Positions 1,165 to 62,712 of a DNA stretch of 64,000 nt are shown piece by piece (position 1 is the stretch's first letter; each line of letters begins with the position of its first letter). This DNA is from an uncultured Prevotellaceae bacterium (GTDB taxonomy: Bacteria > Bacteroidota > Bacteroidia > Bacteroidales > Bacteroidaceae): the NCBI GenBank assembly GCA_900313615.1, contig OMRP01000016.1, forward strand, positions 7,505-71,504, in the 5' to 3' direction. The position numbers and the translations under genes were made by a program. Below the pieces are notes generated by a model, which saw nothing but the letters and a program-made list of their open reading frames with translations, did no database searches and was not told the DNA's origin.

Positions 1165-1166
1165 GA

Positions 1167-2525
1167 ATGGACACAAAGAAACTACGCCAAAAGATACTCG
1201 ACCTTGCAATTCGTGGTAAGCTCGTGCCGCAAGATCCAAACGATGAACCAGCATCTGTATTGCTGGAACGCATCCGTGTGGAGAAAGAGAGGCTCATCAA
1301 AGAGGGAAAGATAAAGCGAAGCAAAAAGTCTTCTTCTGATACGCCCCATTATGAGAATGTGCCGTTTGAAGTGCCTGAGAGTTGGGAGTGGACAACAATC
1401 AATGATATATGCTCAAAAATAGGTTCAGGAAGCACTCCTAGAGGTAGTAATTATGCCGAAGAAGGAATTCCATTTTTCCGCTCTCAAAATGTATATAACG
1501 ATGGACTTGTATATGATGATATTAAATACATATCTGAGGAAATTCACGAAAACATGATTGGCACAGAAGTTCGAGCCCAAGATCTACTTCTCAATATAAC
1601 AGGAGGATCTCTTGGTCGATGTGCTATCGTACCTGATGAATTCCGTAAAGGGAATGTCAGTCAGCATGTATGTATTCTGAGAACCATTGTTGTTTTGCCT
1701 GCGTATTTACATCTGTTTATCATTTCTGATTATTTCGCATCTACGATGATTTTATCGGGGAGCGGACGAGAAGGATTACCTAAATATAGTTTGGAAATAA
1801 TGCAGATTCCACTGCCGCCATACGAAGAACAGAAGCGTATTGTGGCAGCCGTTGAGAAATGGTTCACTTTGATTGATACATTGGAAACTGCAAAAGCCGA
1901 TTTACAATCTTCCATAACACAGGCTAAGTCTATGATTCTTGACATCGCCATTCATGGTAAGCTTGTTCCACAAGACCCGAATGATGAGCCAGCCATAGAA
2001 CTGCTGAAGCGCATCAATCCCAAGTTTTCTCCTTGTGATAACGCGCATTATGAGAATATACCTGAAGGATGGACTGTTTGCGTCCTTGAAGAAATCATTG
2101 ATTATGAGCAACCACAAGCATACATAGTACAATCGACAGATTATAAATCACAGAACAAAACCCCAGTATTAACAGCCGGAAAATCTTTTATTATTGGCTA
2201 TACAAATGAAACTGAGGGAGTCTTCACGGATTTACCAGTTATAATATTTGATGATTTTACCACAGATTCTAAATTTGTTGATTTCCCCTTCAAGGTCAAA
2301 TCATCGGCTATGAAGATACTTCATGTTAAGGATGGAATCAACATTCAATATGTCTACCAGTTTATGAGCACAACAAGGCTCATTGGTGACACTCATAAAC
2401 GATACTGGATTTCAGAATACTCCAAGCTCCATATACCTATTCCACCAAGAAAGGAACAGGATAGAATTATAAATAAAGTAAACGAATTATTCCAGAGTCT
2501 TGACAACATCAGTTCCGAACTATAA
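1167..2525 (+). CDS. hsdS: Type I R-M specificity subunit HsdS (expressed locus, two TRDs)
   Basis: LRQKILDLAIRGKLVPQDPNDEPA, PFEVPESWEW, IPLPPYEEQKRIV motifs. Confidence 0.93.
   Translation: MDTKKLRQKILDLAIRGKLVPQDPNDEPASVLLERIRVEKERLIKEGKIKRSKKSSSDTPHYENVPFEVPESWEWTTINDICSKIGSGSTPRGSNYAEEGIPFFRSQNVYNDGLVYDDIKYISEEIHENMIGTEVRAQDLLLNITGGSLGRCAIVPDEFRKGNVSQHVCILRTIVVLPAYLHLFIISDYFASTMILSGSGREGLPKYSLEIMQIPLPPYEEQKRIVAAVEKWFTLIDTLETAKADLQSSITQAKSMILDIAIHGKLVPQDPNDEPAIELLKRINPKFSPCDNAHYENIPEGWTVCVLEEIIDYEQPQAYIVQSTDYKSQNKTPVLTAGKSFIIGYTNETEGVFTDLPVIIFDDFTTDSKFVDFPFKVKSSAMKILHVKDGINIQYVYQFMSTTRLIGDTHKRYWISEYSKLHIPIPPRKEQDRIINKVNELFQSLDNISSEL
1333..1378 (+). repeat. Shufflon inverted repeat, site 1 (partner 7436-7481)
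   Basis: 46-bp inverted pair with 1 mismatch: cttctgatacgccccattatgagaatgtgccgtttgaagtgcctga. Confidence 0.85.
2039..2057 (+). repeat. Shufflon inverted repeat, site 2 (partners 2988-3006 and ~6771-6789)
   Basis: taacgcgcattatgagaat is inverted at 2988-3006; its core taacgcgcat is inverted near 6771-6781. Confidence 0.85.
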
Positions 2526-2987
2526 GTTGGCACTGATGTTGTCTAATATGTGGTAGTATTGATTTATTGCGGCGACTATTCTTTCTTGTTCTTCTTTTGT
2601 TGGAATTGGAATAATCAATTCTCTGAACATCTTTTTATTCAGGTGTGGAATGGCCGAACCGACTTTGTTCTCTCGTAAAGCCTTTTGATAGAGTTTAACG
2701 AAATAGAGAACATATTGAGCATTTATCTCACCGTTAATTTCAAGCACTTTCATTGTACTTCCTTGATAGCCTTCTACTGGTGTGTGGAAAACTTCTCCAG
2801 AGTTTTCACCATCTACGAGGATTAATGTAGTACCTACAGGTACGTACTTTCCCGACTGTTTAGAAGCATAGTTGCCAGTCCTTAGCCCCTTGACATCTAT
2901 GTAGGGATAATCCTTATTGGTAATGGGCTGACCTTCATTCAAACAGCAAATATTGCCAAGCGGAACGACACACCAAGAATCGGGCAC
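2520..2987 (-). CDS. hsdS: Silent hsdS half-gene (single TRD cassette)
   Basis: PDSWCVVPLG...IPIPTKEEQERIV; begins at an inverted repeat with no own N-terminus. Confidence 0.85.
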   Translation of the reverse strand: MPDSWCVVPLGNICCLNEGQPITNKDYPYIDVKGLRTGNYASKQSGKYVPVGTTLILVDGENSGEVFHTPVEGYQGSTMKVLEINGEINAQYVLYFVKLYQKALRENKVGSAIPHLNKKMFRELIIPIPTKEEQERIVAAINQYYHILDNISANL

Positions 2988-3050
2988 ATTCTCATAATGC
3001 GCGTTAGGTTGCGCTTATATTGTTACTGTTTTATTCAAAACAGAAATAAC

Positions 3051-3854
3051 ATGGTAACAAATTTTGAGAATCAACTTAGCAAGTCAGACTTGGCTAAGAA
3101 CACCATCACTTCGTATGTGTGGACGGTGAAGTACTTCAATGCGAAGTACAAAGAGATTAATAGGAAGAACCTATTGGCTTACAAAGGTTATTTAATGGAA
3201 AAATACAAACCACAAACGGTGAATTTAAGGTTACAGGGTATCAACAAGTATCTGGAGTTTATCAAAAAGGATAAACTAAAGATGAAGTTCGTTAAGGTTC
3301 AGCAGAAGAATTTCCTGGAAAATGTCATCAGTAATGAGGACTACAAGTTTCTGAAGACACGCCTAAAGGCTGACGGCTACGACGAATGGTGTTTCGTGGT
3401 GTGGTTTATGGCGGCCACGGGTGCCCGTGTGAGTGAGTTGCTGCAGATTAAGGCTGAACATGTGGTTGTGGGACATCTTGATATCTATAGCAAGGGTGGT
3501 AAGCTTCGTCGTCTCTATATCCCTAAGAACCTACAGAGAGAAGCTAAGCAATGGCTGGCTGATAAAGGCGTTTCGAGTGGCTATATCTTCCTCAACCGCT
3601 ATGGAAAGCGCATAACCACACGAGGTATCGCTATTCAGTTAAAGCATTTTGCAGACAAGTATGGCTTGAATTGTGAAGTAGTCTATCCACACTCTTTCCG
3701 TCATCGCTTCGCCAAAAACTTCCTCGACAAGTTCAATGACATCGCCCTGCTTGCCGACCTCATGGGGCACGAAAGCATTGAAACCACACGTATCTATCTC
3801 CGCCGCACCGCTACCGAGCAGCGTGCCATCGTAGATAAGGTGGTGAACTGGTAA
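3051..3854 (+). CDS. Tyrosine recombinase/invertase of the hsdS shufflon
   Basis: TGARVSE, HSFRH, LMGH, TTRIY catalytic R-H-R-H-Y set. Confidence 0.92.
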   Translation: MVTNFENQLSKSDLAKNTITSYVWTVKYFNAKYKEINRKNLLAYKGYLMEKYKPQTVNLRLQGINKYLEFIKKDKLKMKFVKVQQKNFLENVISNEDYKFLKTRLKADGYDEWCFVVWFMAATGARVSELLQIKAEHVVVGHLDIYSKGGKLRRLYIPKNLQREAKQWLADKGVSSGYIFLNRYGKRITTRGIAIQLKHFADKYGLNCEVVYPHSFRHRFAKNFLDKFNDIALLADLMGHESIETTRIYLRRTATEQRAIVDKVVNW

Positions 3855-7455: not shown

Positions 7456-7513
7456 ATTCTCATATTGGGGCGTATCAGAAGTTTACTTTCTGTTTCTTTC
7501 TTGAGAGCTTGAT

Positions 7514-48713: not shown

Positions 48714-48775
48714 TACAACCATCAGTCAATTCAACAAACGATTTGGGTTCAGGTGGTATTCGAATCACAAGACGA

Positions 48776-49078
48776 TTACAGCCATCTGTCAAGGGCATGC
48801 CAGCCGCCACCTTTAGACGGAATCATTAGAAAAATAATAACCGCAACAATAAAGGCAGGGAAAAAAACTTTGACGCTGGCTTCTACGTGGCCTGCTTTGA
48901 ACAGTCGCACTACAGAAATCCATAGAGCAATGTCAAGGCACAGCACAACGAAATCCTGTTCGGACTGAATGGGGAGGCACGCGGCATCATATACCGTTGT
49001 TCGAACTATACGGGGATATACAAGACATAGAGCCACCTGGCGAATTCGCGGATAGGTAACTCCGGCCCGCGATAGCAA
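48776..49078 (-). CDS. Possible small membrane protein (cassette 1)
   Basis: Two hydrophobic segments; start uncertain. Confidence 0.3.
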   Translation of the reverse strand: MLSRAGVTYPRIRQVALCLVYPRIVRTTVYDAACLPIQSEQDFVVLCLDIALWISVVRLFKAGHVEASVKVFFPAFIVAVIIFLMIPSKGGGWHALDRWL

Positions 49079-49253
49079 AAAAGACCCAGAGCCGTGTCGT
49101 GTGGCTTTTACACATCACACCTTGTCAAGAAGAGCCTTATTTTGCCCATAACCTTTAAAAGGTATTAAAAACATTACTTTTGTTTGCGGTTTATTTGGTA
49201 GGTGGTATTATTTTTATTACCTTTGTATCGTCAAGTAATAAAACATCGCAGCT

Positions 49254-49448
49254 ATGAAAAGATACAAAGTTAAAGAGATTATCAAACTTCTTGAAAGCGA
49301 TGGATGGTATCTCTCTGCGACAAAAGGAGACCACAGACAGTTCAAGCACCCGAAGAAGCCAGGGAAAGTGACGGTGAGGGGAAAAGACAGTGAGGTCTTG
49401 AATCAGTTCTTACTGAACAGCATCTGGAAACAAGCGGGGTGGAAATGA
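49254..49448 (+). CDS. hicA: HicA toxin (cassette 1)
   Basis: LESDGWY...KGDHRQFKHP.KPGKVTV. Confidence 0.9.
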   Translation: MKRYKVKEIIKLLESDGWYLSATKGDHRQFKHPKKPGKVTVRGKDSEVLNQFLLNSIWKQAGWK

Positions 49449-49501
49449 CCAGCCTTGCTTATCGACAACAACAAACCAAAACAAAAGACAAAAATACAAC
49501 A

Positions 49502-49915
49502 ATGGAAAAAATCAGAGTAGACGTACAATGGTGCGACAAGAATTTCGGAGCCTCTCTTGGCGAGAATGTGCCCGGTGCCGTAGTGGTAACCGCAAAGACA
49601 TACGAACAATTGCTCAACGATGTGCCTGAATCTCTTCGTTTCCATGTGGAGGGCATGCTTGCCGATGGCGACGACGTGCCCCAGTGGTTGCGCAACGGGG
49701 ACTATGAGCTGGAATACAACCTTGTTGACACAGCCACCATGCTCCATGCCTTTGAGCCTCTTTTGTCGCTTGCCGCCATTAGCAGGGTCACCGGTATCAA
49801 CCAGCATCAGCTATCCCACTACGCCAACGGATTGAAGCAGCCCCGCCCGCAGCAACGGCAGCGCATCGTGGACGGCATCCACAAGATTGGTCGTGAACTA
49901 TTGGCTGTTGTATAA
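49502..49915 (+). CDS. hicB: HicB-like antitoxin with C-terminal HTH (cassette 1)
   Basis: Follows hicA; HVEGMLADGDDVP, TGINQHQLSHYANG. Confidence 0.82.
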   Translation: MEKIRVDVQWCDKNFGASLGENVPGAVVVTAKTYEQLLNDVPESLRFHVEGMLADGDDVPQWLRNGDYELEYNLVDTATMLHAFEPLLSLAAISRVTGINQHQLSHYANGLKQPRPQQRQRIVDGIHKIGRELLAVV

Positions 49916-50161
49916 GTTTTATTGTTTGACGACATTGCTTAGCGTCAGCTTGGCGGGGCATCACTGTCCCGGTCTTTTTCTTACTATCGTTTTCCTTTAT
50001 TGTCCAGCCACCGCAGGAACCAAATGAAGAGACCGACGACAACAATGGTGACAGCCACGTCGACGGCGCGTTTTCACTGCTCCTAAAACGAAGGCTACTT
50101 GACCGCTTCTTTTGTTCAATTTGTCGTTTAAAACGGTTTGGGTTCAGGTGGTAATCGAACC

Positions 50162-50407
50162 TCAATCGCCGCCGTCAGAACTTTCATAGGGGTTATAGTA
50201 AAAACCACCACCCTCAATTACTCCATTATGGCAATATTTCCATACCCACCACTGGATGGGAAATGTAATGATAGGAAGTAAAGCAAAGCTCAGGAGTGTA
50301 AACAGGAAACCACGGAACCAGGTCCTCGGCCACCAACCTCCACAGTAAAAGAGGAAAAGCGCAACCGACACACCTACTATCCATAATATAGTCCAAAGAG
50401 TTTCCAT
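50162..50407 (-). CDS. Small two-TM protein, METLW family copy A (cassette 2)
   Basis: 81 aa; stop codon abuts the repeat. Confidence 0.8.
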   Translation of the reverse strand: METLWTILWIVGVSVALFLFYCGGWWPRTWFRGFLFTLLSFALLPIITFPIQWWVWKYCHNGVIEGGGFYYNPYESSDGGD

Positions 50408-50441
50408 GATTATTAGTTTAATAGAATCTGTCCTAATAGCA

Positions 50442-50678
50442 TCATGGGGCATCACAATAAGCCGAACTTTCACCGAGTCCTTCATCTAACCATCCACCAT
50501 TGCAAAACTTCCATATAACGTATTGGATGGGAAAGGTAACTATAGGAAGGAAAGCGAAACTCAATAGCGTAAAAAGAAATCCACGGAACCACGTCCTCGG
50601 CCACCAACCTCCGCAGTAGAAAAGAATCAGTGCAATAGTTACACCTACAATCCATAATATAGTCCAAAGAGTTTCCAT
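50442..50678 (-). CDS. Small two-TM protein, METLW family copy B (cassette 2)
   Basis: 78 aa; upstream TTTG-N20-TATTTTTG promoter. Confidence 0.8.
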   Translation of the reverse strand: METLWTILWIVGVTIALILFYCGGWWPRTWFRGFLFTLLSFAFLPIVTFPIQYVIWKFCNGGWLDEGLGESSAYCDAP

Positions 50679-50809
50679 AATCTCTATTTTAGGGATTTCT
50701 GCAACAAAAATAACATTATTATTATTATTTTCCAAATTAATTCACCTTTATTTTGGTCTTACGGTTTAAAACATTTTGGGTTCAGGTGGTATTCGAACCT
50801 CAATCTTCC

Positions 50810-51196
50810 ATGTCTCTCGAACTCTGCCAGCAGCACATACAGCGCGGCATACGCGACATCTTCAATGCACAGCTACAGATAGCCGAGCGGCGCATCTACG
50901 GATTCACGCGCCGGCCCGAACTCATCTCGCGCCGAACGAGGCACCTCCGGCGCGAACTCGCAGCTGCACGTCACTCCGTCAGTCATAGCGGGCAGGGGCT
51001 CACCGCCACCGCACAGGTGCCGCTCTACATCCGCTTCCTCGACATGAAGAAACACGGCAACCTCCAAATCTACAACCGGCAGATCTACGGCATACTCTAC
51101 CACCGGGTGCTCAACCGAATACGCTACGGCTACACCGACGAGATAGCACAACAAATAAGAAAAAGATTAATCGAAGCAGGAGCGGTACTAAGGTGA
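50810..51196 (+). CDS. Bacteroidetes prophage tail-region hypothetical protein (cassette 3)
   Basis: IRFLDMK...IYNR.IYGILY...IRYG motif; GC-rich. Confidence 0.6.
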   Translation: MSLELCQQHIQRGIRDIFNAQLQIAERRIYGFTRRPELISRRTRHLRRELAAARHSVSHSGQGLTATAQVPLYIRFLDMKKHGNLQIYNRQIYGILYHRVLNRIRYGYTDEIAQQIRKRLIEAGAVLR

Positions 51197-51200
51197 AAAG

Positions 51201-51437
51201 TCAGTCGTCACTACTGTAATCTGATCCTGGAAAAAGTTCGCCGTCTCCCCATCCGCCGCGATAAATCATCCAAATAACATATTGGATGGGCAATGTGATG
51301 ATGGGAGTGAATATGAGTGTCAACATAACAAAACAAAAACCACGCCACCATGTGCTGGGCCACCATCCTTTGCAATAGAAAAGGAAGAGAGCGACTGCTG
51401 TCACCAAACCGACTAATATAACCCAGAGAGTTTCCAT
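51201..51437 (-). CDS. METLW family copy C (cassette 3)
   Basis: 78 aa, FYCKGWWP.TW motif. Confidence 0.8.
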   Translation of the reverse strand: METLWVILVGLVTAVALFLFYCKGWWPSTWWRGFCFVMLTLIFTPIITLPIQYVIWMIYRGGWGDGELFPGSDYSSDD

Positions 51438-51448
51438 GGAAATAATTG

Positions 51449-51694
51449 CTAATTATAGGCGGCAGTACTTTCATAAGGGTCATAATGCCCACCGCTACCC
51501 TCTATTATACCGTTATGGCAATATTTCCAAACCCACCACTGGATGGGCAATGTGATGATGGGAGTGAATATGAGTGTCAACATAACAAAACAAAAACCAC
51601 GCCACCATGTTCTTGGCCACCATCCTTTGCAATAGAAAAGGAAGAGAGCGACTGCTGTCACCAAACCGACTAATATAACCCAGAGCGTTTCCAT
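51449..51694 (-). CDS. METLW family copy D (cassette 3)
   Basis: 81 aa; 5' ~155 bp nearly identical to copy C. Confidence 0.8.
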   Translation of the reverse strand: METLWVILVGLVTAVALFLFYCKGWWPRTWWRGFCFVMLTLIFTPIITLPIQWWVWKYCHNGIIEGSGGHYDPYESTAAYN

Positions 51695-51828
51695 AACGAC
51701 TTTTGTTTCTTGATGCAAAAATAAACGACGCATAATGCTTTTACAAGGGTTTTTCCCTATTGTTAAGGGGGAAAACCCCAAATTTATGTTAAGTTTAAAA
51801 CGGTTTGGGTTCAGGTGGTATTCGAACC

Positions 51829-52075
51829 AGAGGTTGGAAAGGGATTCGCTGAGCCCGGCAATATATTTTTTCTGCTCCCCGATATGTCTCTTCATGTCGT
51901 CGATGTTCTTCTGCATACTCCTGCCGGCTTCCGCATCACCTTTTTTCTTCGAGTTTAGGAGACGTTTCTGGGAGTCTTCGAGAGTTTTCAGCTCACTCTC
52001 GAGTTTTTTTAGTTCGTTCTGTGCGTTTTTGCTGTTTACGTCGATGACGGCTCTGAATACTTCTTCGTGTCCCAT
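51829..52075 (-). pseudogene. 5' fragment of a probable tape-measure protein, cut by a repeat (cassette 4)
   Basis: IDVNSKNAQNELKKLE coiled coil runs into repeat 4. Confidence 0.55.
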
Positions 52076-52141
52076 AATAATAGGTGGTATGTTTGCTTCT
52101 CTTGCAAATATACCACCTATATCTTTGGAGCGAAAATACCA

Positions 52142-52423
52142 CTAAGCCGGATTCCTCGACTCCTCGTATGTTTGTTGCACGATATCCTCCAGTTCTCTCT
52201 TCGACTTAGCCCTTAATGTGGTAATTTTATTTATAGAAGACAGCCAAAGGACGGCACAATATTCATTATTCTTGAAATCAACATACGCACTAACTACCTT
52301 ATTCTCGCTACCGAGATCATACATGTTCCTTAGCCTGATTTTGGCCTCAGGTCTATCCTTTTTTTGTCTTCCCATCAGCCAGACAATTATCCAGGATGTT
52401 ATTAAAAGTGCGAGAAATTCCAT
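52142..52423 (-). CDS. Small membrane-anchored protein (cassette 4)
   Basis: 93 aa with an N-terminal TM segment. Confidence 0.65.
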   Translation of the reverse strand: MEFLALLITSWIIVWLMGRQKKDRPEAKIRLRNMYDLGSENKVVSAYVDFKNNEYCAVLWLSSINKITTLRAKSKRELEDIVQQTYEESRNPA

Positions 52424-52491
52424 ATATAGTATGTTTAGTGTTCGTTGTAAAAACCCCCTATACTCCCGCACCGGGGGCTGAAGAGTTCTAT

Positions 52492-52935
52492 CTAAAATGA
52501 TTTATTAAGACGCTGCACGGTAGGTTGCTCTAAAGGCAGACCGTGAGCCAAATCACTTGCAAACTTATTGATACCTTCGCGTATCTTCTTGACCTGGGCC
52601 TCGTGAGGTACTCGCAATGACGCGATATATTGTCGAAGCACAGAAGCGTTCATGCCGATGTATTTTGCGAATGCTGTCACATCGATTGGGTAATAGTCAA
52701 AAAACGAACCTATGTCAAGCCTGAAGTCAAATTGTACTTCAGGGAATCTACGTCCCTCTTCTTCCTCCATTTCTTTGTATTCTTTTACAGTGACAATGAT
52801 GTCATCCATCGCTTCGCGGGCGGTCTTGCCATAGCCGGCCAGGCCACACTTACCGACAGGATCGGGAGAAAAGCATGAGAAATTACCTTTTCCTTTTCCG
52901 CGTTCAACGTAAACAATTCTCTTAACGGTTCCCAT
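52492..52935 (-). CDS. hicB: Orphan HicB-like antitoxin (cassette 4)
   Basis: GYGKTAREAMDD, FAKYIGMNASVLRQY HTH. Confidence 0.78.
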   Translation of the reverse strand: MGTVKRIVYVERGKGKGNFSCFSPDPVGKCGLAGYGKTAREAMDDIIVTVKEYKEMEEEEGRRFPEVQFDFRLDIGSFFDYYPIDVTAFAKYIGMNASVLRQYIASLRVPHEAQVKKIREGINKFASDLAHGLPLEQPTVQRLNKSF

Positions 52936-53019
52936 ATATAATGAGTTATAAATATTATCAAAGTAAAGAGTCCTATTATTAATTAGCAAAGTAATTCGGC
53001 ATGGAAAAAGTTGTGGGGG

Positions 53020-53061
53020 TTATTCCCCCAACAACTTTTTTAAGATTTCTCGGAGAGTACC
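53020..53061 (-). pseudogene. Last 13 codons of a hicA-like gene, cut by repeat 5
   Basis: Translates to GTLREILKKLLGE*, upstream of hicB. Confidence 0.6.
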
Positions 53062-53157
53062 GTTTAAAACGGTTTGGGTTCAGGTGGTATTCGAACCGGA
53101 ATTGCTCCAATTCTTTGGACACCTTCAGTTTACTTTGTCTCTCCATCGCCACACCAT

Positions 53158-53343
53158 TTAAAAGCCCATAGCATCCATCATCGCATCGTATTCCATAGGA
53201 TTACTTGGCATGTCACCATACATGCCGTCAGTCAGCGCATCCCAGGAATCCTCTTCTGTCCATTCGTAGCCACCTTCATTGTAGCTTTCGCACTCGTAAT
53301 CATCGTACTCTTCATAAGAGTCATCATAATAATCTCTTGCCAT
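53158..53343 (-). CDS. Very acidic 61-aa protein (cassette 5)
   Basis: D/E/Y-rich with a single basic residue; only gene in a 301-bp cassette. Confidence 0.75.
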   Translation of the reverse strand: MARDYYDDSYEEYDDYECESYNEGGYEWTEEDSWDALTDGMYGDMPSNPMEYDAMMDAMGF

Positions 53344-53562
53344 AATCTTTTGTTTTTAATCGTTATTACTCTTATTTCTTTACCAAAACACTCTGGGCGT
53401 TTAAAACGGTTTGGGTTCAGGTGGTATTCGAACCCAAAAGTACTTTTTTTCTGAATTATTGATTAAAATGGTTATGTTAATATAGTATTTTAACCTCAAT
53501 GCCTGTCGGTGTCTTAGTTGTGGTTTTATTGAATACGCGATGTTGCATATCTTATATCTTTG

Positions 53563-54168
53563 CTATGTGATATAAAGCATTCGGTATTTCAATCGCGCAC
53601 TATGACACTTTGGGCAGTACAGCGGGTCATCATTTCCTTTTAGTATGTCTTCCTCCTTATTTCTGATTATTGAGCCACATTTTGGACAGACGAAATCTTT
53701 ATCAGACTCTCCAAACGTATGATATTGTTTACTCTCGTTGTGTTCTATAACGAATGCATGGCAGTTAGGGCATTGCCTGCCAATATCACATGACACCGCA
53801 CCATGAACGAAACTTATAATATCCTCATGGTAACCACAGTCGCAACATTCAATCTTTCCCGCGCCACCCATTTGGGAAAAACAGAGATAATGTTCATCCG
53901 GTTTCAAACCCAATTTCTTTTTCAACATAATTTCCTCTTTATCTTTTTTCTTTTCTTCTCTTGTTTTCTTGTATTTGCTAACTGCTACATTAATTAAAAT
54001 TACAGGTAGGAACACGGTTGCGAAGGGTGCCGTAATCAGAAGAGTCAACCACTGCTTAAACGTTGTTTTCTCTGAATCCTTGTTCTTCTTGTTATTATAG
54101 ACCCGAATGCTGATGGTTAAAACAAGACTTATAAACCAATAGATGAGTACATAATGAATCCAATTCAT
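53563..54168 (-). CDS. Two-TM protein with four CxxC zinc-ribbon motifs (cassette 6)
   Basis: CCDC, CPNC, CPKC, CPKC; own TATATTTG promoter. Confidence 0.75.
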   Translation of the reverse strand: MNWIHYVLIYWFISLVLTISIRVYNNKKNKDSEKTTFKQWLTLLITAPFATVFLPVILINVAVSKYKKTREEKKKDKEEIMLKKKLGLKPDEHYLCFSQMGGAGKIECCDCGYHEDIISFVHGAVSCDIGRQCPNCHAFVIEHNESKQYHTFGESDKDFVCPKCGSIIRNKEEDILKGNDDPLYCPKCHSARLKYRMLYIT

Positions 54169-54292
54169 AGTTTTCCCTTCTGTATTGTTTAAGATTAAAA
54201 TGGTTCTGTTACTTATAGAAACTTTGCAAATATAAACATAATAATCGACACAAACAAAATAAATGGGCAAAAGCCTAAAATATGGCACGGAT

Positions 54293-54583
54293 TTATAAAA
54301 ACACTTCCATACCATTGAGGTTATCATAGACCAGCCCGGAGCCGTAGCAGACCTCCGCATTGAAGAGCTGGCACGTCGAAAGTGTCTCGTCGCTTTCTAT
54401 GAGGTCGAGGACACGGAAAGGCAGATTGTTGTCGCCTCCCCACGGCATATAGGCGAGGTTTTTGTCAACGATGAAGGGAGCGGTGTCCTCCGATTCACGG
54501 AAGACTTCGGAGGAGTTGACCGTAAAAGCAGCACTTGCTTTGAGGTCGGGGATGAGTTCTACGCTGTTAAAAGAAAAATCCAT
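54293..54583 (-). pseudogene. N-terminal fragment of a phage portal protein (cassette 6)
   Basis: PWGGDNNLP...DETLSTCQLFNAEVCYGSGL; ends after ~90 aa. Confidence 0.65.
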
Positions 54584-54649
54584 AACTTTGTTTTTGATGC
54601 AAAGTTATGGATTGGTATGTGATGGGGAAAAGACAATAACTATAGACTA

Positions 54650-55099
54650 TTAGTCATTGTCGATGTTCTTTAACATGAAAAGGCACCTTCCTTTTCTATA
54701 GTCTTTAGGTGACAATCTCTTTTTACAATCAAACGCATTTTTATAATCGACAACGTCCCATTCCCATGCTTCCTGCATGATATATTTTTTATCGTATAAA
54801 ATCCATATAAGTTTATCCCACTCATAGTTGGTTGCTTTAGGAGCCATTGTCACGAAGCTACCAGGCTTTCCACTGGGACGATTGGCTTTTACTTGGTATC
54901 TTATGCCATTGAAGACAAAATCAGCCCCCTTGCTAACAGCGGTTTTGTCTTGCATATATTCAGAATATTGGTCTTCAGACATTCCTATGAGCATTGCAGC
55001 ATCATACTCTGAAAGAGAACTGGTAATCGATGGTGATACTCCAAATTTACTTTGCCATGCTAAAGCAATTTCAACAAGATTATCTCTAAGCATATACAT
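54650..55099 (-). CDS. PD-(D/E)XK-like nuclease-fold protein (cassette 6)
   Basis: SEYDAA...GADF...YQVK. Confidence 0.55.
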   Translation of the reverse strand: MYMLRDNLVEIALAWQSKFGVSPSITSSLSEYDAAMLIGMSEDQYSEYMQDKTAVSKGADFVFNGIRYQVKANRPSGKPGSFVTMAPKATNYEWDKLIWILYDKKYIMQEAWEWDVVDYKNAFDCKKRLSPKDYRKGRCLFMLKNIDND

Positions 55100-55225
55100 T
55101 ATTTTTAAGTTTAAAACGGTTTGGGTTCAGGTGGTATTCGAACCGACGAGTATTTTTATCTTAAAAGTTACGGGATTTGGCATGTCGTGTCCTTTTTTTT
55201 TATTATATTTGCAAAAAAAACAAGA

Positions 55226-55501
55226 ATGAAGTTAAAGAAACGAGGTAAGAAACTCTTCGCCTACCTTTTAGTGGCACTGCTCTCTTTTCCGGTGGCATTG
55301 ATTTCATGGTGCTCATCTTGGTATGATGTATGTACCGTAAGTCTCATTATTTTCGTTTTTTCTGTAGTCAAAAGTATCTGTATATATTTGGCCAACTTTT
55401 ACGACAAATACGGGCTTTTGAGCAGGCAAGGGCCAGACACACTGTTCGAATACGAGCCGGGCGACAAAGAGTATGAAGAAGAGAAGAAATGGCAGCGATA
55501 G
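55226..55501 (+). CDS. Small two-TM protein (cassette 7)
   Basis: 91 aa, own promoter; TAG stop is completed by the first G of repeat 8. Confidence 0.75.
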   Translation: MKLKKRGKKLFAYLLVALLSFPVALISWCSSWYDVCTVSLIIFVFSVVKSICIYLANFYDKYGLLSRQGPDTLFEYEPGDKEYEEEKKWQR

Positions 55502-55579
55502 TTTAAAACGGTTTGGGTTCAGGTGGTATTCGAACCCTGAATTTTTTTGGAGATTAAAAAAATTTGTTTATCGTTTGCA

Positions 55580-55653
55580 ACGAGGATTCCGTAGCTAATG
55601 ACTACCGATTCTTCGCCAGAATGAGGAATGAGCAATCATTCCTCAAACTTTTT
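55580..55653 (+). ncRNA. Candidate sRNA, two hairpins (cassette 8)
   Basis: Stem with 7-nt CUAAUGA loop; perfect 10-bp tgaggaatga-gcaa-tcattcctca hairpin plus U-tract. Confidence 0.5.
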
Positions 55654-55725
55654 ATAGAACACAAATGATATGGTGGAGTTGAATTTCGTTCATTTTGTTG
55701 TATTTTTGCAGTAAAAAAATCAGTT

Positions 55726-56160
55726 ATGACTATTATATCCAACTCCGAAGACAGCAAAACAACATTTCTCGAGCTAATAAATCAGAGAAGAGCTTTGAAC
55801 AACGAACTGTCAGTTGTGCTTCGCCATTACACAGGCATATCGTCCACTCTACTTGCTCTATTGGCTGTGTTTGGTGATATAGCTTCGTTTTCCCTTCCAG
55901 TAAGGATTCTGATTTCAGCGAGTATGACGTGTTTACTTTCATCTGTTCTGTCGGGAGTGTGGTGCTGTATGGCAGTTTATCTAACACGCGAAAGAGCCAT
56001 GGGAAGAGTTCTCGAACAGCTGAGGACGAAAGCCGGAAATGCTCAAGGGTCAGTATCTCCCCCTTTCGGATTCTCCTTTTTTGTGCGATTCTGCCCCACC
56101 ATGTTGTGCTTGGGCGTTCTATTCTTATGGCTGAGCGCCATGTTTTTGTTGTTTTTTTAA
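55726..56160 (+). CDS. Three-TM membrane protein (cassette 8)
   Basis: 144 aa, hydrophobic segments, TATTTTTG -7 element. Confidence 0.7.
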   Translation: MTIISNSEDSKTTFLELINQRRALNNELSVVLRHYTGISSTLLALLAVFGDIASFSLPVRILISASMTCLLSSVLSGVWCCMAVYLTRERAMGRVLEQLRTKAGNAQGSVSPPFGFSFFVRFCPTMLCLGVLFLWLSAMFLLFF

Positions 56161-56223
56161 TGCTTTCTTCCATTTTTTTTGTGTTTTTTATTTGGAAGTT
56201 AAAATATTTTGTTTATCTTTGCA

Positions 56224-56290
56224 GTTGGAATAGCATCAGGGTTGAGCCTTGGATTGTAACTCCAGGTAGTTCTTCCTTTTTGCTATTTCT
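56224..56290 (+). ncRNA. Candidate sRNA with a tRNA-anticodon-like hairpin, convergent on the MuF gene end (cassette 8)
   Basis: TTTG-N19-TATCTTTG promoter; CTTGGA-TTGTAAC-TCCAGG; closing gaatagca/tgctattt stem. Confidence 0.5.
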
Positions 56291-56954
56291 TTTTTATGTA
56301 TTTCTTTATTTCTTCTGGATTGTCAGAAATGGAATGGAGGACGTATTCTCCCCAGTCCCACTCCCAAACAATTATACATTGTTCATCCCCTTTTACCTTA
56401 GTGGAGAAAATATGACTTTGCTTTAATTTTGGCTTTTGGTTATGAGGCGGAAGTGTCGATGGTCCCAGGTATTCACACTCTTTTTCTTCAAACACTTCAT
56501 TTATACGTAGTAGCATCTTGTTTTTTTCTTGATAGTGTTTGTTGGGTTGGTTGGTCCATTCTGTTATTGATGCTCTTGATATATTTATAGGATGGGGAAA
56601 TTTCGATGTGTTGATAGAAGTCCCCTGTAGTGGTTTGGCTTGTTTCCTTGTCTGCTTGGCATCAGCATTTGCTAATGATCTGACAATCCGGCATGCTGCA
56701 CACAGTTCATTCTCGGGCACGAAAGCGAGGTTGACTTTTCCCTGTGCGATGTCGCAGTCTCGGCAACGTCGTATGGTGTATGGGTTGTAGTCCGGAATAG
56801 TCTTCTGCTCTATGCCTGGATTGAAGTGGAAGATGCCCTTGTTGTCCTTTCCGGTTGCCGCCTCTCCGAGTGCCATTGCCTCGTCGTGCGGGGTCACGGG
56901 ATACTTTGACTTGCGGACCTGGACAACAGTGCATCGGCAGTTCCAGCCGTTTGG
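56283..56954 (-). pseudogene. 3' fragment of phage head morphogenesis protein (MuF) with C-terminal extension, cut by repeat 9
   Basis: Begins PNGWNCRCTVVQVRK directly at the repeat. Confidence 0.8.
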
Positions 56955-56990
56955 GTTTAAAACGGTTTGGGTTCAGGTGGTATTCGAACC

Positions 56991-57151
56991 GTGAGTATGG
57001 CCCTTCCCTGGTTCCTGACAGGCGACTTTCGTCGCTGCCAAGCCTGGGAGAAGAAGGCCTGACGTTCGAAGTTCCGGTCGAACTCGTCGGTGAGTTCTAC
57101 CTGAATGTCGCGGAGGATGTTTTTTATTATTTTCTGAATATTTTCGGGCAT
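56991..57151 (-). pseudogene. 5' fragment of phage virion morphogenesis protein (Mu gpG-like), cut by repeat 9 (cassette 9)
   Basis: DIQVELTDEFDRNFERQAFFSQAWQRRKS. Confidence 0.72.
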
Positions 57152-57188
57152 TTTGTTTGGAGGTTAGGGATTTCTTTGTATCTTTGCA

Positions 57189-57275
57189 GTGTCCTTAGTG
57201 ACTACCCGCTGAGTATGCGTGGGGATTGGGCTTTATCGTACCGTCCCATTTGGCTGTCTTCGGATAGCCTTTTTT
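57189..57275 (+). ncRNA. Candidate sRNA with promoter and terminator (cassette 9)
   Basis: TTTG(57156)-N19-TATCTTTG(57179); ggctgtc-ttcg-gatagcc-T6 terminator; no ORF inside. Confidence 0.55.
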
Positions 57276-57425
57276 ATTGTTCGATACGTTTTCTGAACTC
57301 CTTGTAGAACGTTCTCTTCATAACAAAGTTCCTTTCCACAGACACCATCTTTTTCCCAACTGCTACCAGCACTTCCAGTGCCTCGTTGTTAGCCTCGAAG
57401 TATTGTTTGATTTCTGTGGCCATTC
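57274..57425 (-). pseudogene. 3' end of an upstream phage gene (probably a MuF extension), cut by repeat 10
   Basis: 49-aa tail MATEIKQYF...FRKRIEQ*; upstream of the virion morphogenesis gene. Confidence 0.45.
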
Positions 57426-57483
57426 GTTTAAAACGGTTTGGGTTCAGGTGGTATTCGAACCATTAAAAATGAAATAAGTCATT

Positions 57484-57729
57484 TTAATCGCTACTACTAT
57501 AAAACGCAGCACTCTTTTGTGTGTTGCCATCTCCATCTCCCCATCCACCATGGTAAATCATCCATATAACATACTGAATAGGGAAAGTGATAATCGGAGT
57601 AAACAGACAAGTCAATATGATAAACAAAAAACCACGAAACCATGTACTGGGCCACCATCCTTTACAATAAAAAAGGAAGAGAGCCACCGTCAGCACAACC
57701 CCAACCAATATTGTCCAAAGCGTTTCCAT
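57484..57729 (-). CDS. METLW family copy E (cassette 10)
   Basis: 81 aa; upstream promoter region homologous to cassette 2. Confidence 0.8.
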   Translation of the reverse strand: METLWTILVGVVLTVALFLFYCKGWWPSTWFRGFLFIILTCLFTPIITFPIQYVIWMIYHGGWGDGDGNTQKSAAFYSSSD

Positions 57730-57860
57730 GATTTCTGATTGAAATAACTTCACCACAAAAATAATATTAATAATAATATTTTCCAAATTAATTCACCTTT
57801 ATTGTTTAAAACGGTTTGGGTTCAGGTGGTATTCGAACCTATCGGCATTGCGAACAATTC

Positions 57861-57940
57861 AGGTTGCCTGATTCATAGTTTGGGAACACGCTTTTTATAG
57901 TTGTTTCGGTGGCAGTAGGTTAACCGATTCATAGTTTAGG
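57861..57940 (+). repeat. Iteron-like direct repeats upstream of rep
   Basis: aggttgcctgattcatagtttggg / aggttaaccgattcatagtttagg (20/24 identical, 56-bp period). Confidence 0.5.
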
Positions 57941-57970
57941 CAATTATTATATGTATATACATACGTGCGT

Positions 57971-59239
57971 ATGGAGAAGAAACAAGGAATATCGAAAGAG
58001 GAAATGCGCCAGTTGGTGGAGTCGCATTCGTGGATCAAGTCGCCGTTCGCCTACACCAAACTGGGTGCCAACCTCTCGCTGGTGCAGCAGCAGTCGCTCC
58101 TCATGGTCAGCGACCATCTGCAGACGTATATCAAGGACTTCTACAACCTAAAACTGGATAAGTCGAAGAAGCGCCCCAAGTCGCTGTTCACGGAGCACCT
58201 TTTGAAGAACGGAATACCTCCGTTCCGCATCTATCTGGCCGACCTCGGTGTGCAGGCGGGCAACTACCGCGACGTGCGCAAGGCCATCAACGAAATGGCG
58301 GTGATGGTGGAGCACCCAGTGCTCGACGATGACGGCATCCCCACGGGTGAGACGGCCTTTAACCCGGTCTTCGAGGAGTTCAGGGTGAAAGAGACTGGCG
58401 ACTACTACCACTACGAGCGCGAGAATGAGGAGGGGCTGATGGAAATGGCGGAGTCGGTGCGGCACTATGGCTACATCGACGTGCAGATCAACCCGAAGGT
58501 GGCCGAGTGGGCTTTTGATATGTCGGCGGGATATGTGAACCATTTGAAACTGATAGCGCGTTATAGTACAAAGCGCCCCACGCCGCGCCTCTATCTCATG
58601 CTGATGCGGGCGATAGGGCAGGGGAAGAAACGGGTGCGCTACACGCTTCAGGAATTAAAGGAATACCTCGGTATCGTGCCCTACGTCAACGAGAAGGGCG
58701 AGACAGTGACACCTTACCCCAAGTTCGCCCACTTCCGCATCAAGGTGCTCGACGCGGTGCGCGACGACCTCGACCGCATGGCGAAACTCAACCAGACGGA
58801 CATCCGATTTGAGTATGATCTGATTTATCCCGGCAGCCGTAAGCGTGGCGAACCTGAATATATTGAGTTCAAGATTGAGCGCACTCAGTTGGGCGATGCG
58901 TATAATGTTATCGTCAATCACCAGCCGTCTGAGATAAAGCAGCAACCCCGTCAACAAGAACTTTTTATGGAAGAGTATAAAGAGAAGTTTAAACAGTGCT
59001 TGGCAGAAATGGCTGAAAAGGTTGAAGATGACAGTGTAAAAGCGAAATTGAAAATGATGCAGTTTGAGCATTTCGACACAACCAAGAAGGTGCTTTACAT
59101 TCAACTGCCCGACTCCGACTATTACCAATGGATAGAGAGCGACAACGTAATCCGATTCGTATGGGGACATCTTTCCAAGCATTTCGGGAAAAGCATCCAG
59201 CTCCAATATAGGCTGTTGAAAAATTCACCGAAACCGTGA
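57971..59239 (+). CDS. Rep_3/RepB-like replication initiator (cassette 11)
   Basis: RLYLML, TLQELKEYLGI, YPKFAHFRIKVLD winged-helix pattern. Confidence 0.8.
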   Translation: MEKKQGISKEEMRQLVESHSWIKSPFAYTKLGANLSLVQQQSLLMVSDHLQTYIKDFYNLKLDKSKKRPKSLFTEHLLKNGIPPFRIYLADLGVQAGNYRDVRKAINEMAVMVEHPVLDDDGIPTGETAFNPVFEEFRVKETGDYYHYERENEEGLMEMAESVRHYGYIDVQINPKVAEWAFDMSAGYVNHLKLIARYSTKRPTPRLYLMLMRAIGQGKKRVRYTLQELKEYLGIVPYVNEKGETVTPYPKFAHFRIKVLDAVRDDLDRMAKLNQTDIRFEYDLIYPGSRKRGEPEYIEFKIERTQLGDAYNVIVNHQPSEIKQQPRQQELFMEEYKEKFKQCLAEMAEKVEDDSVKAKLKMMQFEHFDTTKKVLYIQLPDSDYYQWIESDNVIRFVWGHLSKHFGKSIQLQYRLLKNSPKP

Positions 59240-59312
59240 CAACCTGTACCAAATGTTAAAATCGAAAAGGGTATATTTGCATCGTAAACGAATATATCCT
59301 TTTTGATTTTTT

Positions 59313-59594
59313 ATGAGCGAGGAAAACGAAAAGAAATCTCCGACCCTTGATGATTTCATCATCACCGAGAAGGTGGATGCCTTCTGCAAGCAGTATCGCC
59401 CGGTCAAGGAACACACCTTCGCTACCGAGGCTTTCAACGAAGAGCGGCTGCGTGAGTTCTTCAAGGCTTACGAACTGTTCTCGCAGGGCGACCCTTTGAA
59501 GGTGTATATCGACGAGCTGGCCGCACGCGACTATCACATGTCCGTATCGGTATATGGCGAGCCAGCTATTATAGTGGAGGAAAAATTCGACTGA
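59313..59594 (+). CDS. Phage hypothetical protein (cassette 11)
   Basis: 93-aa ORF with TATATTTG promoter. Confidence 0.65.
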   Translation: MSEENEKKSPTLDDFIITEKVDAFCKQYRPVKEHTFATEAFNEERLREFFKAYELFSQGDPLKVYIDELAARDYHMSVSVYGEPAIIVEEKFD

Positions 59595-59628
59595 CATCTA
59601 TCAAACCAATCAAAATAATTGTATCAGC

Positions 59629-60456
59629 ATGGCAAAATATTATTATGAGTTTCCTTTCGACAGCAAGGAGGGCAGGGCACTGGCAAAGTTCCACCACGCC
59701 TGCGTCAACGCCGAGCGCATGGCGGAGAAGTATGCGAAAGGTATGGGGGCGGTGTCTTATTATACAAGCCCGCATTACTTCACCGGCGGCGTGGAATACT
59801 TGGTCTTCGCAGATCCCAAGAAGGTGAACACCGACATCTGGAGGCTGGCCAACAAGACTAAAGACGGCGAACAATGGTGGGAACCTAATGTGGAGAAAGT
59901 GGCGGGGTGCGTGAAGGCGCGTGAGAATTTCACGCCATCAGACGTGGCCGGGCGCACTTATTCCAAACGTCCCAGCACATGGGACGAGGTGCGCAGGACG
60001 TACACTCTGGACGAATGGCTGGCTTTCATAGGATTCAAGACATCCGGCGACAAGGAGATAGACAGCAAGGCCATAGTGGGCTTGTTGGGCGACAAGCAAT
60101 TCTACAAGTACATCGACATCATCCCGAATGCCGCTCCCGTGGCGGGCAGGAAACGAAGTCGTGACGGGTCTAAAGCCGTGACCGCCGAGCAGGAGCGGAT
60201 GAAACTGCCGGTCGTCAGGACAGAAGACTTTTACCAGATAGTTCATGCCCACAACGTAGCCGCCGAAAACGAAAAAGAAGGAAAGCCCCTGAAGGTGGAT
60301 GAGAGCACGCCTGTGTTTTTCGCCCATGCTGGGAAGTGGAACATCGGGCTTGACCGTCTAATAGACTGCGGGGATTATGACGGCTTCGCGGAAATCACCG
60401 CAGGGATGTTCACGGCAAGGAAAAACTTCATGCTGCGAGAATTGAATAGGAAATAG
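59629..60456 (+). CDS. Phage hypothetical protein (cassette 11)
   Basis: 275-aa ORF. Confidence 0.65.
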   Translation: MAKYYYEFPFDSKEGRALAKFHHACVNAERMAEKYAKGMGAVSYYTSPHYFTGGVEYLVFADPKKVNTDIWRLANKTKDGEQWWEPNVEKVAGCVKARENFTPSDVAGRTYSKRPSTWDEVRRTYTLDEWLAFIGFKTSGDKEIDSKAIVGLLGDKQFYKYIDIIPNAAPVAGRKRSRDGSKAVTAEQERMKLPVVRTEDFYQIVHAHNVAAENEKEGKPLKVDESTPVFFAHAGKWNIGLDRLIDCGDYDGFAEITAGMFTARKNFMLRELNRK

Positions 60457-60475
60457 AAAACGGCAATTCTCCCAA

Positions 60476-61126
60476 TTACCGTTTGTTGGGGTTTACGTGT
60501 GGGCGCGGAGCGTCTCCGTAATCTGCCACACCTTCGGGGCTGTAACCGCTATAGGAAGACTGGCGCCCGCCTTGCGTGAGTGCCAGTCTTATTGTTTGCA
60601 TCCCGTCGCTCACCATGTCCTTGTATTCGTCTATCCGAGCTTCATATTGGCTGATGCGCTCTTCGTATTGCCGGCGCATATCATCTTCACGCTCCTGATA
60701 TTCTCTTCTAAGCTGTGCCTCTTTCTTCAGCTGCTCGTCTTTTATCCGTTGAATCTCCTGCATGTGGTCAATTTTCATTTGCAGGATTTCCATCTGCGAT
60801 GTATTATCTTTCTCGTTCTTTTCATTTTTCGTCGCTTCGCTTTGCAGCCGTTCATCCCCTCGCACTGAGGCGCGATGTGCCGTTTTTGGAATGACTGTCG
60901 CCGGACTGTCGCCGTCAAGAAAGAACTCCGAAAGGTCTATGTCATAAAGATTGCAGAGCAGCACCATTTTTTCTACTGGCAGAGGATTGGTCTTGTCCTT
61001 CATCCATCGTTTCAGGCTCACATTATTCACCTCCAGGTCTTTCATAAGTTGGGTGAGTTTTAGCCCCGACTTCTCGAACCACTGTCCAAAGAAATCGGCG
61101 TTGTACGAATACTTTTTCATAATCAT
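60476..61126 (-). CDS. XRE/CI-like HTH repressor with coiled-coil C-terminus (cassette 11)
   Basis: LTQLMKDLEVNNVSLKRWM...LLCNLYDIDLSEFF; divergent overlapping promoters upstream. Confidence 0.72.
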   Translation of the reverse strand: MIMKKYSYNADFFGQWFEKSGLKLTQLMKDLEVNNVSLKRWMKDKTNPLPVEKMVLLCNLYDIDLSEFFLDGDSPATVIPKTAHRASVRGDERLQSEATKNEKNEKDNTSQMEILQMKIDHMQEIQRIKDEQLKKEAQLRREYQEREDDMRRQYEERISQYEARIDEYKDMVSDGMQTIRLALTQGGRQSSYSGYSPEGVADYGDAPRPHVNPNKR

Positions 61127-61251
61127 TCTGGTTTATGTTTGACAAATGCTTTTCTTAAAAAATGTTTATCTAATCAAAATAAATAATCATTATAGATTGA
61201 TATTTATTTTAGTTTCGTACTTTTGCAACAAAGTTACAAAATATCAATGAA

Positions 61252-61322
61252 ATGACAAAAGAAGTATTTTTGAAATTGCACGCCCCTGGCGGTCATCTTG
61301 AAGCAAAAGACCTGACCGCCGA
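61252..61322 (+). pseudogene. Start of the divergent early gene, cut by repeat 12
   Basis: MTKEVFLKLHAPGGHLEAKDLTA runs into the repeat. Confidence 0.5.
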
Positions 61323-61358
61323 GTTTAAAACGGTTTGGGTTCAGGTGGTATTCGAACC

Positions 61359-61476
61359 CTTTAATTGGTAATTTTTTGAGGCAAAGATAGTTGTAATTTT
61401 TATAATTACAAAAAAATGAAAGAAATAATGAGCAATTTATATTATTCCTTCATTTTTTTAGTAATTTAGCCGAAAA
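61359..61476 (-). promoter_or_regulatory. Array leader with a promoter facing into the array
   Basis: AT-rich; minus-strand TTTG(61412-61409)-N19-TATCTTTG(61389-61382); palindrome TTGTAATT-N5-AATTACAA. Confidence 0.78.
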
Positions 61477-62334
61477 ATGGCAAAGCAAACTTTAGTATTC
61501 GAATCATCAAAAGAACTATCCTTAAGAGATGGTATGTTGGTCATTACCAACAGGGAGACTGAAGAGACGACATTGCGCTCGTTGGAGGACATCCAGATGA
61601 TCATGGTGGATAATCATTCCGTCAAGATAACGATTCCTCTCATCGCTAAATTATCGAAATTAAATATCGGTGTTGTGTTCTGCGACGAGAAACATATGCC
61701 TGTGTCGATGTTGTTGGATTTGGAATCTAATACCTTGCAGTCGAAAAGGATAAGATGTCAGTTGGCTGCATCAAAACCAGTCAATAAACAAATATGGAAA
61801 CAAATTGTAGAGGCTAAAATCCGTAACCAGTCTTTATTGCTTGAGAAATTGGGCATTGGCAAATCATTGCTTGCCACCTACTACAACAATGTCAAAAGTG
61901 GCGATTCCACCAATCGGGAAGGGATGGCTGCAAGAGTGTATTGGTTGAAACTCATTGGAAAGAACTTTATTCGTGATAGGTTTGGAGGACCTCCGAATGC
62001 TCTCCTTAATTACGGCTATACCGTGCTCCGTTCTATGGTGGCCAGAAGTCTCATGAATGCAGGACTGCTTCCTCTCGTGGGAATCTTCCATCATAATTGT
62101 CACAATGCTTTTCCTTTGGCCGATGATGTTATGGAACCATATAGACCTTATGTTGACTATCGGGTAATAATAATGCTGAAAGAAGGACTGACGGAAGTGT
62201 GCAGAGAATCGAAGAGACGGCTATTGGAATTATTTTATCAAGATATTTCTGCTGACGCAATGTCATTGACGGCTTCTTCACTGGCTGGTATTTATGAAGA
62301 AGATGGTAGAGTTATTGTTTATCCAACGATTTGA
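61477..62334 (+). CDS. cas1: CRISPR-associated integrase Cas1 (type II-like)
   Basis: FCDEKHMP, KIRNQ, SGDSTNREG, NALLNYGY, GIFHH, LADDVMEPYRP. Confidence 0.95.
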   Translation: MAKQTLVFESSKELSLRDGMLVITNRETEETTLRSLEDIQMIMVDNHSVKITIPLIAKLSKLNIGVVFCDEKHMPVSMLLDLESNTLQSKRIRCQLAASKPVNKQIWKQIVEAKIRNQSLLLEKLGIGKSLLATYYNNVKSGDSTNREGMAARVYWLKLIGKNFIRDRFGGPPNALLNYGYTVLRSMVARSLMNAGLLPLVGIFHHNCHNAFPLADDVMEPYRPYVDYRVIIMLKEGLTEVCRESKRRLLELFYQDISADAMSLTASSLAGIYEEDGRVIVYPTI

Positions 62335-62338
62335 AAAT

Positions 62339-62653
62339 ATGTGGATCTATGTTGTTACAAGTTTCACCCGCTATAACAAGGTGGGACGAAAAGCAAAGGA
62401 TGTTTTTCAAAAGTCAATAGTTAAAGATGGATTCTTCCAACTACATGAGAATCTGTATGTCAGGTATTGCAGCACGGTAGGTAATGCTAATATGCATAAA
62501 GAACGAGTAAAGAACGTCATACCGATAAAGTGTTGCGATGTGAGCATTATTATGACCGCTGATAGTCAGGAAAGCAATATCTATCACAGCCTTAATAGGA
62601 AAAGGTCAAAATGTATTGTTTATGGAAAACATGGCAATGTGGAATTCTTCTAG
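62339..62653 (+). CDS. cas2: Divergent Cas2 (type II-like)
   Basis: Follows cas1; KDGF.QL...YVRYC...A..H.ERVK..IP; usual FD(L)P motif replaced by TSFT. Confidence 0.82.
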   Translation: MWIYVVTSFTRYNKVGRKAKDVFQKSIVKDGFFQLHENLYVRYCSTVGNANMHKERVKNVIPIKCCDVSIIMTADSQESNIYHSLNRKRSKCIVYGKHGNVEFF

Positions 62654-62666
62654 AATTGTTTTACTA

Positions 62667-62712
62667 AACAAAGAGCCATTTCCCTCTTTAAGACAGGAAA
62701 CGGCTCTTTGTT
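62667..62712. terminator. Bidirectional terminator between cas2 and rpiB
   Basis: aacaaagagcc...ggctctttgtt. Confidence 0.7.

Follow-up and report, generated by a model that had tools for sequence, protein, structure and literature searches.

The array locus and its leader-proximal insert

The window analysed here, a 64,000-nucleotide stretch from an uncultured Prevotellaceae bacterium (assembly GCA_900313615.1, contig OMRP01000016.1, forward-strand positions 7,505 to 71,504; coordinates below are those of the window unless a contig is named), carries an array of clustered regularly interspaced short palindromic repeat (CRISPR) type. A 36-bp repeat occurs twelve times (48731 to 61323), with inserts of 0.3–3.5 kb between the copies, and a 118-bp leader and cas1–cas2 follow. 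The insert nearest the leader (57840–61322, 3483 bp), with limits set by the repeats starting at 57804 (57804–57839) and at 61323 (61323–61358, the leader-proximal copy), is the subject of this study. It contains, from left to right, a group of iterons, a gene for a Rep_3-fold replication initiator, genes for proteins of 93 and 275 amino acids, a minus-strand gene for an XRE-type repressor candidate and the start of a divergent early gene that is cut by the repeat. Sequence comparison identifies this segment as one contiguous, captured slice of a phage-plasmid-like element, which is what an earlier note on this DNA, made from the letters alone, had proposed; an exact donor for a kilobase insert is the new element of the present work.

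The adaptation genes, cas1 with a divergent cas2, lie at 61477–62653 (+). Cas1 is of type II (cas1_NMENI, 276 bits against a cut-off of 120) and its relatives carry the annotation rumen Prevotella. An effector gene was not found, Cas9 being seen neither in the window nor in the host genome (G000, 81.6% complete). The leader (61359–61476) has back-to-back promoters by the published −7/−33 consensus (PMC7366714): one points into the array, with a −7 box at 61389 (−) that is conserved in three related arrays and an accompanying −33 element, and a weaker match points towards cas1. Cas1 relatives at 57–91% identity have kilobase-spaced arrays wherever the array was recovered (L003, L004, L009, L010 and L077), and those at about 43–53% identity (29 loci) have ordinary arrays with units of 65–66 bp; kilobase spacing is confined to the close Cas1 clade. 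The array downstream of cas1–cas2 in L009, otherwise kilobase-spaced, holds one spacer of normal length (65-bp unit, L009:11034–11099). In runs X5 and X2 a related strain is present that skips part of the leader (61390–61459) and most of cas1–cas2 (61569–62668), possibly a collapsed allele of the locus; X2 moreover shows the terminal degenerate repeat connected to other sequence. A repeat-like 36-mer elsewhere in the host genome (G000 C20:191755) has nine mismatches and occurs once, and was taken as chance.

An exact donor and the origin of the insert

When the exact Rep protein was looked up, most hits were copies of the window array; one, from another study, was a contig without an array and supplied the donor that the earlier note had suggested searching for. 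This contig, L025 (9685 bp, Logan SRR11585784), matches the insert over its positions 96–3578 at 3482 of 3483 bases with zero gaps, and identity ends at the first base of each repeat on both sides. The sole mismatch, at 61246, is derived in the array copy, all close relatives having the donor base. In the donor run, depth is 36 over the insert and coverage of the other inserts or of cas1 is essentially zero, so the match is not a chimera with the array. Neither donor end shows repeat-like sequence, microhomology or duplication. The host assembly holds no resident donor, rep and the XRE gene each matching the insert only; no match was found among cultured phages, and the XRE gene and control region were not found in IMG/VR. 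The material consists of one donor and one half-junction, from which a motif resembling a protospacer-adjacent motif is not derivable.

Taken together, the donor, its exact ends and the full repeat on each side argue for a spacer-like insertion at the leader end, and a donor-matched kilobase insert with such clean ends is strong sequence evidence that this Cas1–Cas2 clade writes gene-sized DNA. It is unlikely that the insert is instead the remnant of a phage integration into a repeat, or of some other recombination. Some relatives of the donor do encode a tyrosine recombinase; however, the donor ends are bare, as described above, the repeat was not found in the viral contigs searched (IMG/VR), and 11 unrelated inserts in the window array share the same spacer-like geometry.

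Two further contigs bear on whether the insert serves mainly as a stretch of homology at which related phage-plasmids enter the array by recombination, the least probable of the explanations considered here. L125 continues for 200 bp beyond the left cut, where it has an intact phage origin instead of a repeat, and is joined to the right junction of the array; both L125 and L126 carry phage-type patches and are joined to the leader-side repeat. These contigs represent either recombination with a related phage or assembly chimeras. The main patches are flanked by identical stretches of 74–111 bp, so that chimeric assembly can explain them, and about 20 other array contigs show the plain insert, unchanged. 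Acquisition by Cas1–Cas2 probably accounts for the position of the insert, and its contents are considered next.

A complete initiator gene beside half an origin

The complete Rep_3-like gene reported earlier is indeed present: an ATG-initiated open reading frame (ORF) at 57971–59239 (+) encodes 422 amino acids predicted to adopt a tandem winged-helix fold, with pi (E 3e-6) and RepE as the top structural matches, and a C-terminal DnaA_N-like domain. Rep3_C is matched by 59 of 67 Rep homologues, the window Rep falling under the Pfam cut-off when taken alone, and matches to plasmid RepB were found in Segatella. The iteron-like repeats were also located as described, two 21-bp copies at 57861 and 57917 with a degenerate one between them (57861–57937, +), the first starting 21 bp from the edge of the insert; none is expected by chance. 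Downstream of rep lies a long, terminator-like inverted repeat (59258–59310, z = −4.9), one arm of which bears a −7-like box.

What the insert holds is only half of an origin, a feature that the earlier note did not have. In relatives the origin spans 350 bp, its left side formed by three inverted iterons and its right side by direct iterons, with an AT-rich core reaching 83% AT between them. Iteron sequence co-varies with Rep type, which supports the iterons as Rep sites. The insert retains the last 131 of these approximately 350 bp, with the right-hand iterons only; neither the inverted iterons of the left side nor the AT-rich core was captured. The over-replication that the earlier note proposed to look for in read coverage did not appear in the one array-bearing run analysed, where per-contig depth is 14.3 for the insert, 14.2 and 14.0 for two older inserts, 17.4 for another and 19.3 for cas1. 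A functional captured replicon is not supported, given the incomplete origin and the lack of over-replication in that run.

No consensus −7 box lies upstream of rep on the rep strand within the insert, and conserved one-mismatch −7 boxes overlap the retained iterons. Near-consensus boxes occur upstream of the cut as well as within the retained iterons, so that the rep promoter may lie on either side of the cut. The boxes over the iterons, the completeness of rep with its pi/RepE fold and the co-variation of iterons with Rep would all suit a mechanism in which Rep, made from a promoter inside the retained iterons, acts with the chromosomal iterons to destabilise a plasmid prophage of the same type. 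This is nevertheless improbable: just two good iterons are present, at chromosomal copy number, the insert has no consensus rep promoter and a leader transcript would be antisense to rep. Such interference also could not block lytic growth, because the donor early operon carries a DnaC-like loader module.

The repressor candidate and its control region

The XRE gene is intact, as first read, and occupies 60476–61126 (−), with an ORF for 216 amino acids. Its product has the Cro/C1 fold and is predicted to form a five-helix helix-turn-helix (HTH) domain, a disordered linker and a long coiled coil made of one 80-residue helix (residues 103–185). The structural neighbours of the HTH domain found with Foldseek are SinR, P22 c2 and SaPI Stl, at a probability of about 1 but with E-values of only 0.03–0.1. 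The earlier description of the protein as a CI-type repressor does not hold in the lambda sense, since an S24 peptidase domain was not matched and the predicted C-terminal part is one long helix.

Upstream of the gene, the control region (61127–61260) contains overlapping face-to-face promoters, with the early −7 box at 61218–61225 (+) and the repressor −7 box at 61236–61229 and −33 element at 61259 (−). The facing boxes are exactly where the earlier note put them. Two pairs with this precise geometry exist in the window and none in 100 shuffles; however, the host genome contains 36 face-to-face pairs against about 6 expected, which indicates a common Bacteroidales arrangement and not the mark of a phage switch. 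Both repressor elements lie inside the insert, by which the repressor candidate appears to have a complete promoter of its own; read-through from the leader is possible but not needed. The leader promoter does point into the array, as had been noted, but the position of the repressor behind it is probably incidental.

Of the early gene, which starts at 61252, 23 codons are left before the cut (61252–61322, +), and the frame continues through the repeat as a 39-residue fusion. The donor copy of the gene encodes 152 amino acids, confirming the truncation recognised previously, and matches neither Cro nor Cox. The captured early promoter now faces cas1–cas2 through the repeat and leader (61218–61477), and the intervening sequence has no significant terminator fold.

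In nearly all close relatives the XRE gene is divergent from the early operon. Many relatives, some of them with a different Rep and different iterons, are identical to the insert at 114 of 115 positions of the control region and at 63–65 of 68 residues of the HTH domain, and the immunity group is common in rumen samples, one cluster having 54 members. Given this near identity of the control region, immunity could be broad and cover the whole immunity group, if the XRE protein acts like phage repressors generally.

Of the remaining products, the 93-residue protein (59313–59594, +) is conserved in the phage family and the 275-residue protein (59629–60456, +) is encoded beside the XRE gene in almost every relative examined. 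No useful family match was obtained for either of these or for the 152-residue early protein, each compared with only some of Pfam, PHROGs, NCBIfam, PADLOC and the Atlas. Sequence searches of the PDB were empty or insignificant.

The donor family

The relatives of the donor are phages of 86–98 kb, one of them circular, in which parA, rep and the XRE gene accompany phage morphogenesis genes, and this is what bears out the phage-plasmid-like source proposed for the insert. Their gene order is parA, a small gene, the origin, rep, the 93- and 275-residue genes and the XRE gene, followed by the divergent early operon, which in the donor opens with the 152-residue gene and then an exonuclease, a DnaC-like loader and a methylase. 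The longest contigs of relatives cluster at 80–108 kb. The complete circular relative (G351:C4; 98,182 bp, 99-bp terminal repeat) encodes ParA, a gene in the rep position, an XRE protein (46% identical), an endolysin, a tape-measure-like gene and a weak terminase match, and no tyrosine integrase was found in it; other relatives have a head protease and a tape measure. Replication and partition genes thus share one replicon with virion genes in G351:C4 and its relatives, and phage-plasmid is the best reading of the family. Terminase_6N was not found in two IMG/VR fragments. The closest relatives have a tyrosine recombinase within the early operon and the donor contig is only 9.7 kb long; phages of this family may optionally integrate.

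The 93-residue gene is reversed in some relatives (L001:11258–11539 and L063:11271–11549), and in G062 its homologue sits in the morphogenesis region. The host genome itself carries prophage-like genes (G000 C20:186000–206000 and C26:32875–34434) that are unrelated to the donor slice.

Immunity or chance content

These observations are compatible with the following mechanism. A piece of an invading or resident parA–rep phage-plasmid would have been inserted, with the geometry of a spacer and probably by catalysis of Cas1–Cas2, at the leader end of the array. Judging from the anatomy and the depth, the cut ends took away the lytic operon and half of the origin, which leaves the piece harmless and non-replicating. 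The repressor kept its own promoter and is probably made, and it could then repress the early promoter when a phage of its own immunity group enters the cell. The outcome would be immunity without lysogeny, with Rep and the three remaining iterons most likely as passengers, a reading of the sequence to which we assign an even chance.

Selection for immunity through capture of the repressor or of rep is not shown, and several observations weigh against protection by the repressor. Among 34 other inserts in six arrays (28.7 kb, 92 ORFs) there is no phage repressor and no Rep, and the single XRE gene found there best matches a plasmid antitoxin. By chance, about 3% of slices 3.5 kb long would include the repressor unit in full, and whole-unit capture at such odds is unremarkable after the fact. 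The two array-joined copies in L125 and L126 carry the substitutions G21A and M28I in the HTH domain, at positions invariant in 17 of 17 close homologues and with changes found in no phage relative; this fits relaxed selection, in tiny numbers. The identical copies of the insert come from two studies, which may belong to one campaign. The early-gene homologue of the distant relative G062 lacks a divergent XRE gene, so that the repressor role rests on fold and synteny, and an operator search gave weak palindromes only, one of them formed by the two −7 boxes themselves.

Several of these points would also be expected if the array were an inert archive, a real capture with chance content and no useful protection, whose latest piece is non-toxic through its ends. 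The same arrays hold housekeeping fragments, such as the mid-gene aminotransferase fragment in L003. A sister strain (L050:1–140 and L051:1–98; cas1 one base different) has another leader-proximal insert that is 100% identical to a mid-gene segment of the host chromosome (G000 C20:184407–184546), which points to capture of self DNA and to ongoing variation at the leader end. The lack of recurrence of the repressor and the HTH substitutions agree with such an archive as well. Against it, the repressor gene and promoter are intact, and the immunity group that would be targeted is common in rumen samples; in temperate phages, moreover, the repressor alone usually gives immunity. We regard the archive as a serious but less likely account than immunity conferred by the captured repressor.

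The other inserts were compared with the donor phage family and are not pieces of it. One small membrane protein has paralogues in three separate inserts of the window (50162–57803), and this recurrence is a stronger sign of selection than the repressor. HicAB- and HigBA-like toxin–antitoxin genes and MuF/LPD3 or morphogenesis fragments also recur across independent arrays (window 49254–49915 and 52492–53061; L003:6420–7092; L004:5748–6173; L009:14960–15686).

A wider proposal, more speculative than the archive, is that an effector-less Cas1–Cas2 system gains heritable, phage-specific immunity by capturing a repressor unit as a gene-sized spacer that acts through proteins and not through a guide RNA; the captured early promoter facing cas1–cas2 could then raise acquisition once the repressor is inactivated. 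If the repressor protects, this would be a route to phage immunity that needs neither an effector nuclease nor a resident prophage. With donor group, candidate protective gene and target promoter all named, the idea is open to direct test. Gene-sized writing would in addition bear on the repurposing of CRISPR adaptation and on genome-writing tools, and the analysis defines a family of 86–98 kb Prevotella phages with plasmid replicons.

Comparison with known systems

The array resembles the type II-C adaptation module of Bacteroidales in its cas1_NMENI-type Cas1, its cas2, 36-bp repeats and leader, and in its variation at the leader end. As in CRISPR adaptation, cas1–cas2 stand beside a leader and identical repeats, and foreign DNA is bounded exactly by two full repeats with zero extra bases. 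It departs from standard type II-C systems in that the inserts measure 0.3–3.5 kb rather than about 30 bp, Cas9 was not found and any protection would come from captured genes and not from CRISPR RNA. The nearest published case found is SiL-E1 of Sulfolobus islandicus LAL14/1 (PMC3718332), a pseudo-spacer in which mobile-element DNA of about 2 kb is enclosed by two perfect repeats, likewise leaving no unaccounted bases. SiL-E1, however, is a single case in a normal array and is 82% identical to its closest plasmids, whereas every insert of the window array is long and the donor match is 99.97%. No description of such kilobase arrays was found beyond SiL-E1, in incomplete coverage of the literature. 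Integron cassettes similarly place gene-sized foreign DNA in an array behind a promoter and beside an integrase gene, but here there is no IntI or attC, the insert ends cut a gene and an origin, and the neighbours are cas1–cas2.

The donor family shares with Rep_3 iteron replicons (R6K pi, F RepE) and phage-plasmids such as P1 (10.1101/2020.11.09.375378) the winged-helix Rep fold, 21-bp iterons beside an AT-rich core, an upstream parA, morphogenesis genes and a circular genome. It differs in belonging to Bacteroidales, in the DnaA_N-like domain added to Rep and in having two iteron groups that are inverted, and the array insert differs from a functional Rep_3 replicon in holding half of the origin only. 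Like the immunity regions of temperate phages (lambda cI/cro; P2 and 186), the insert has an XRE-fold HTH protein divergent from an early operon and facing promoters, which recall the face-to-face switch of P2 and 186 cited in PMC3675496. In contrast to those regions, it lacks an S24 autocleavage domain, has a long coiled coil and shows promoter overlap of a few bases only. In the way it works, the insert resembles a CRISPR acquisition event and possibly also the immunity region of a prophage.

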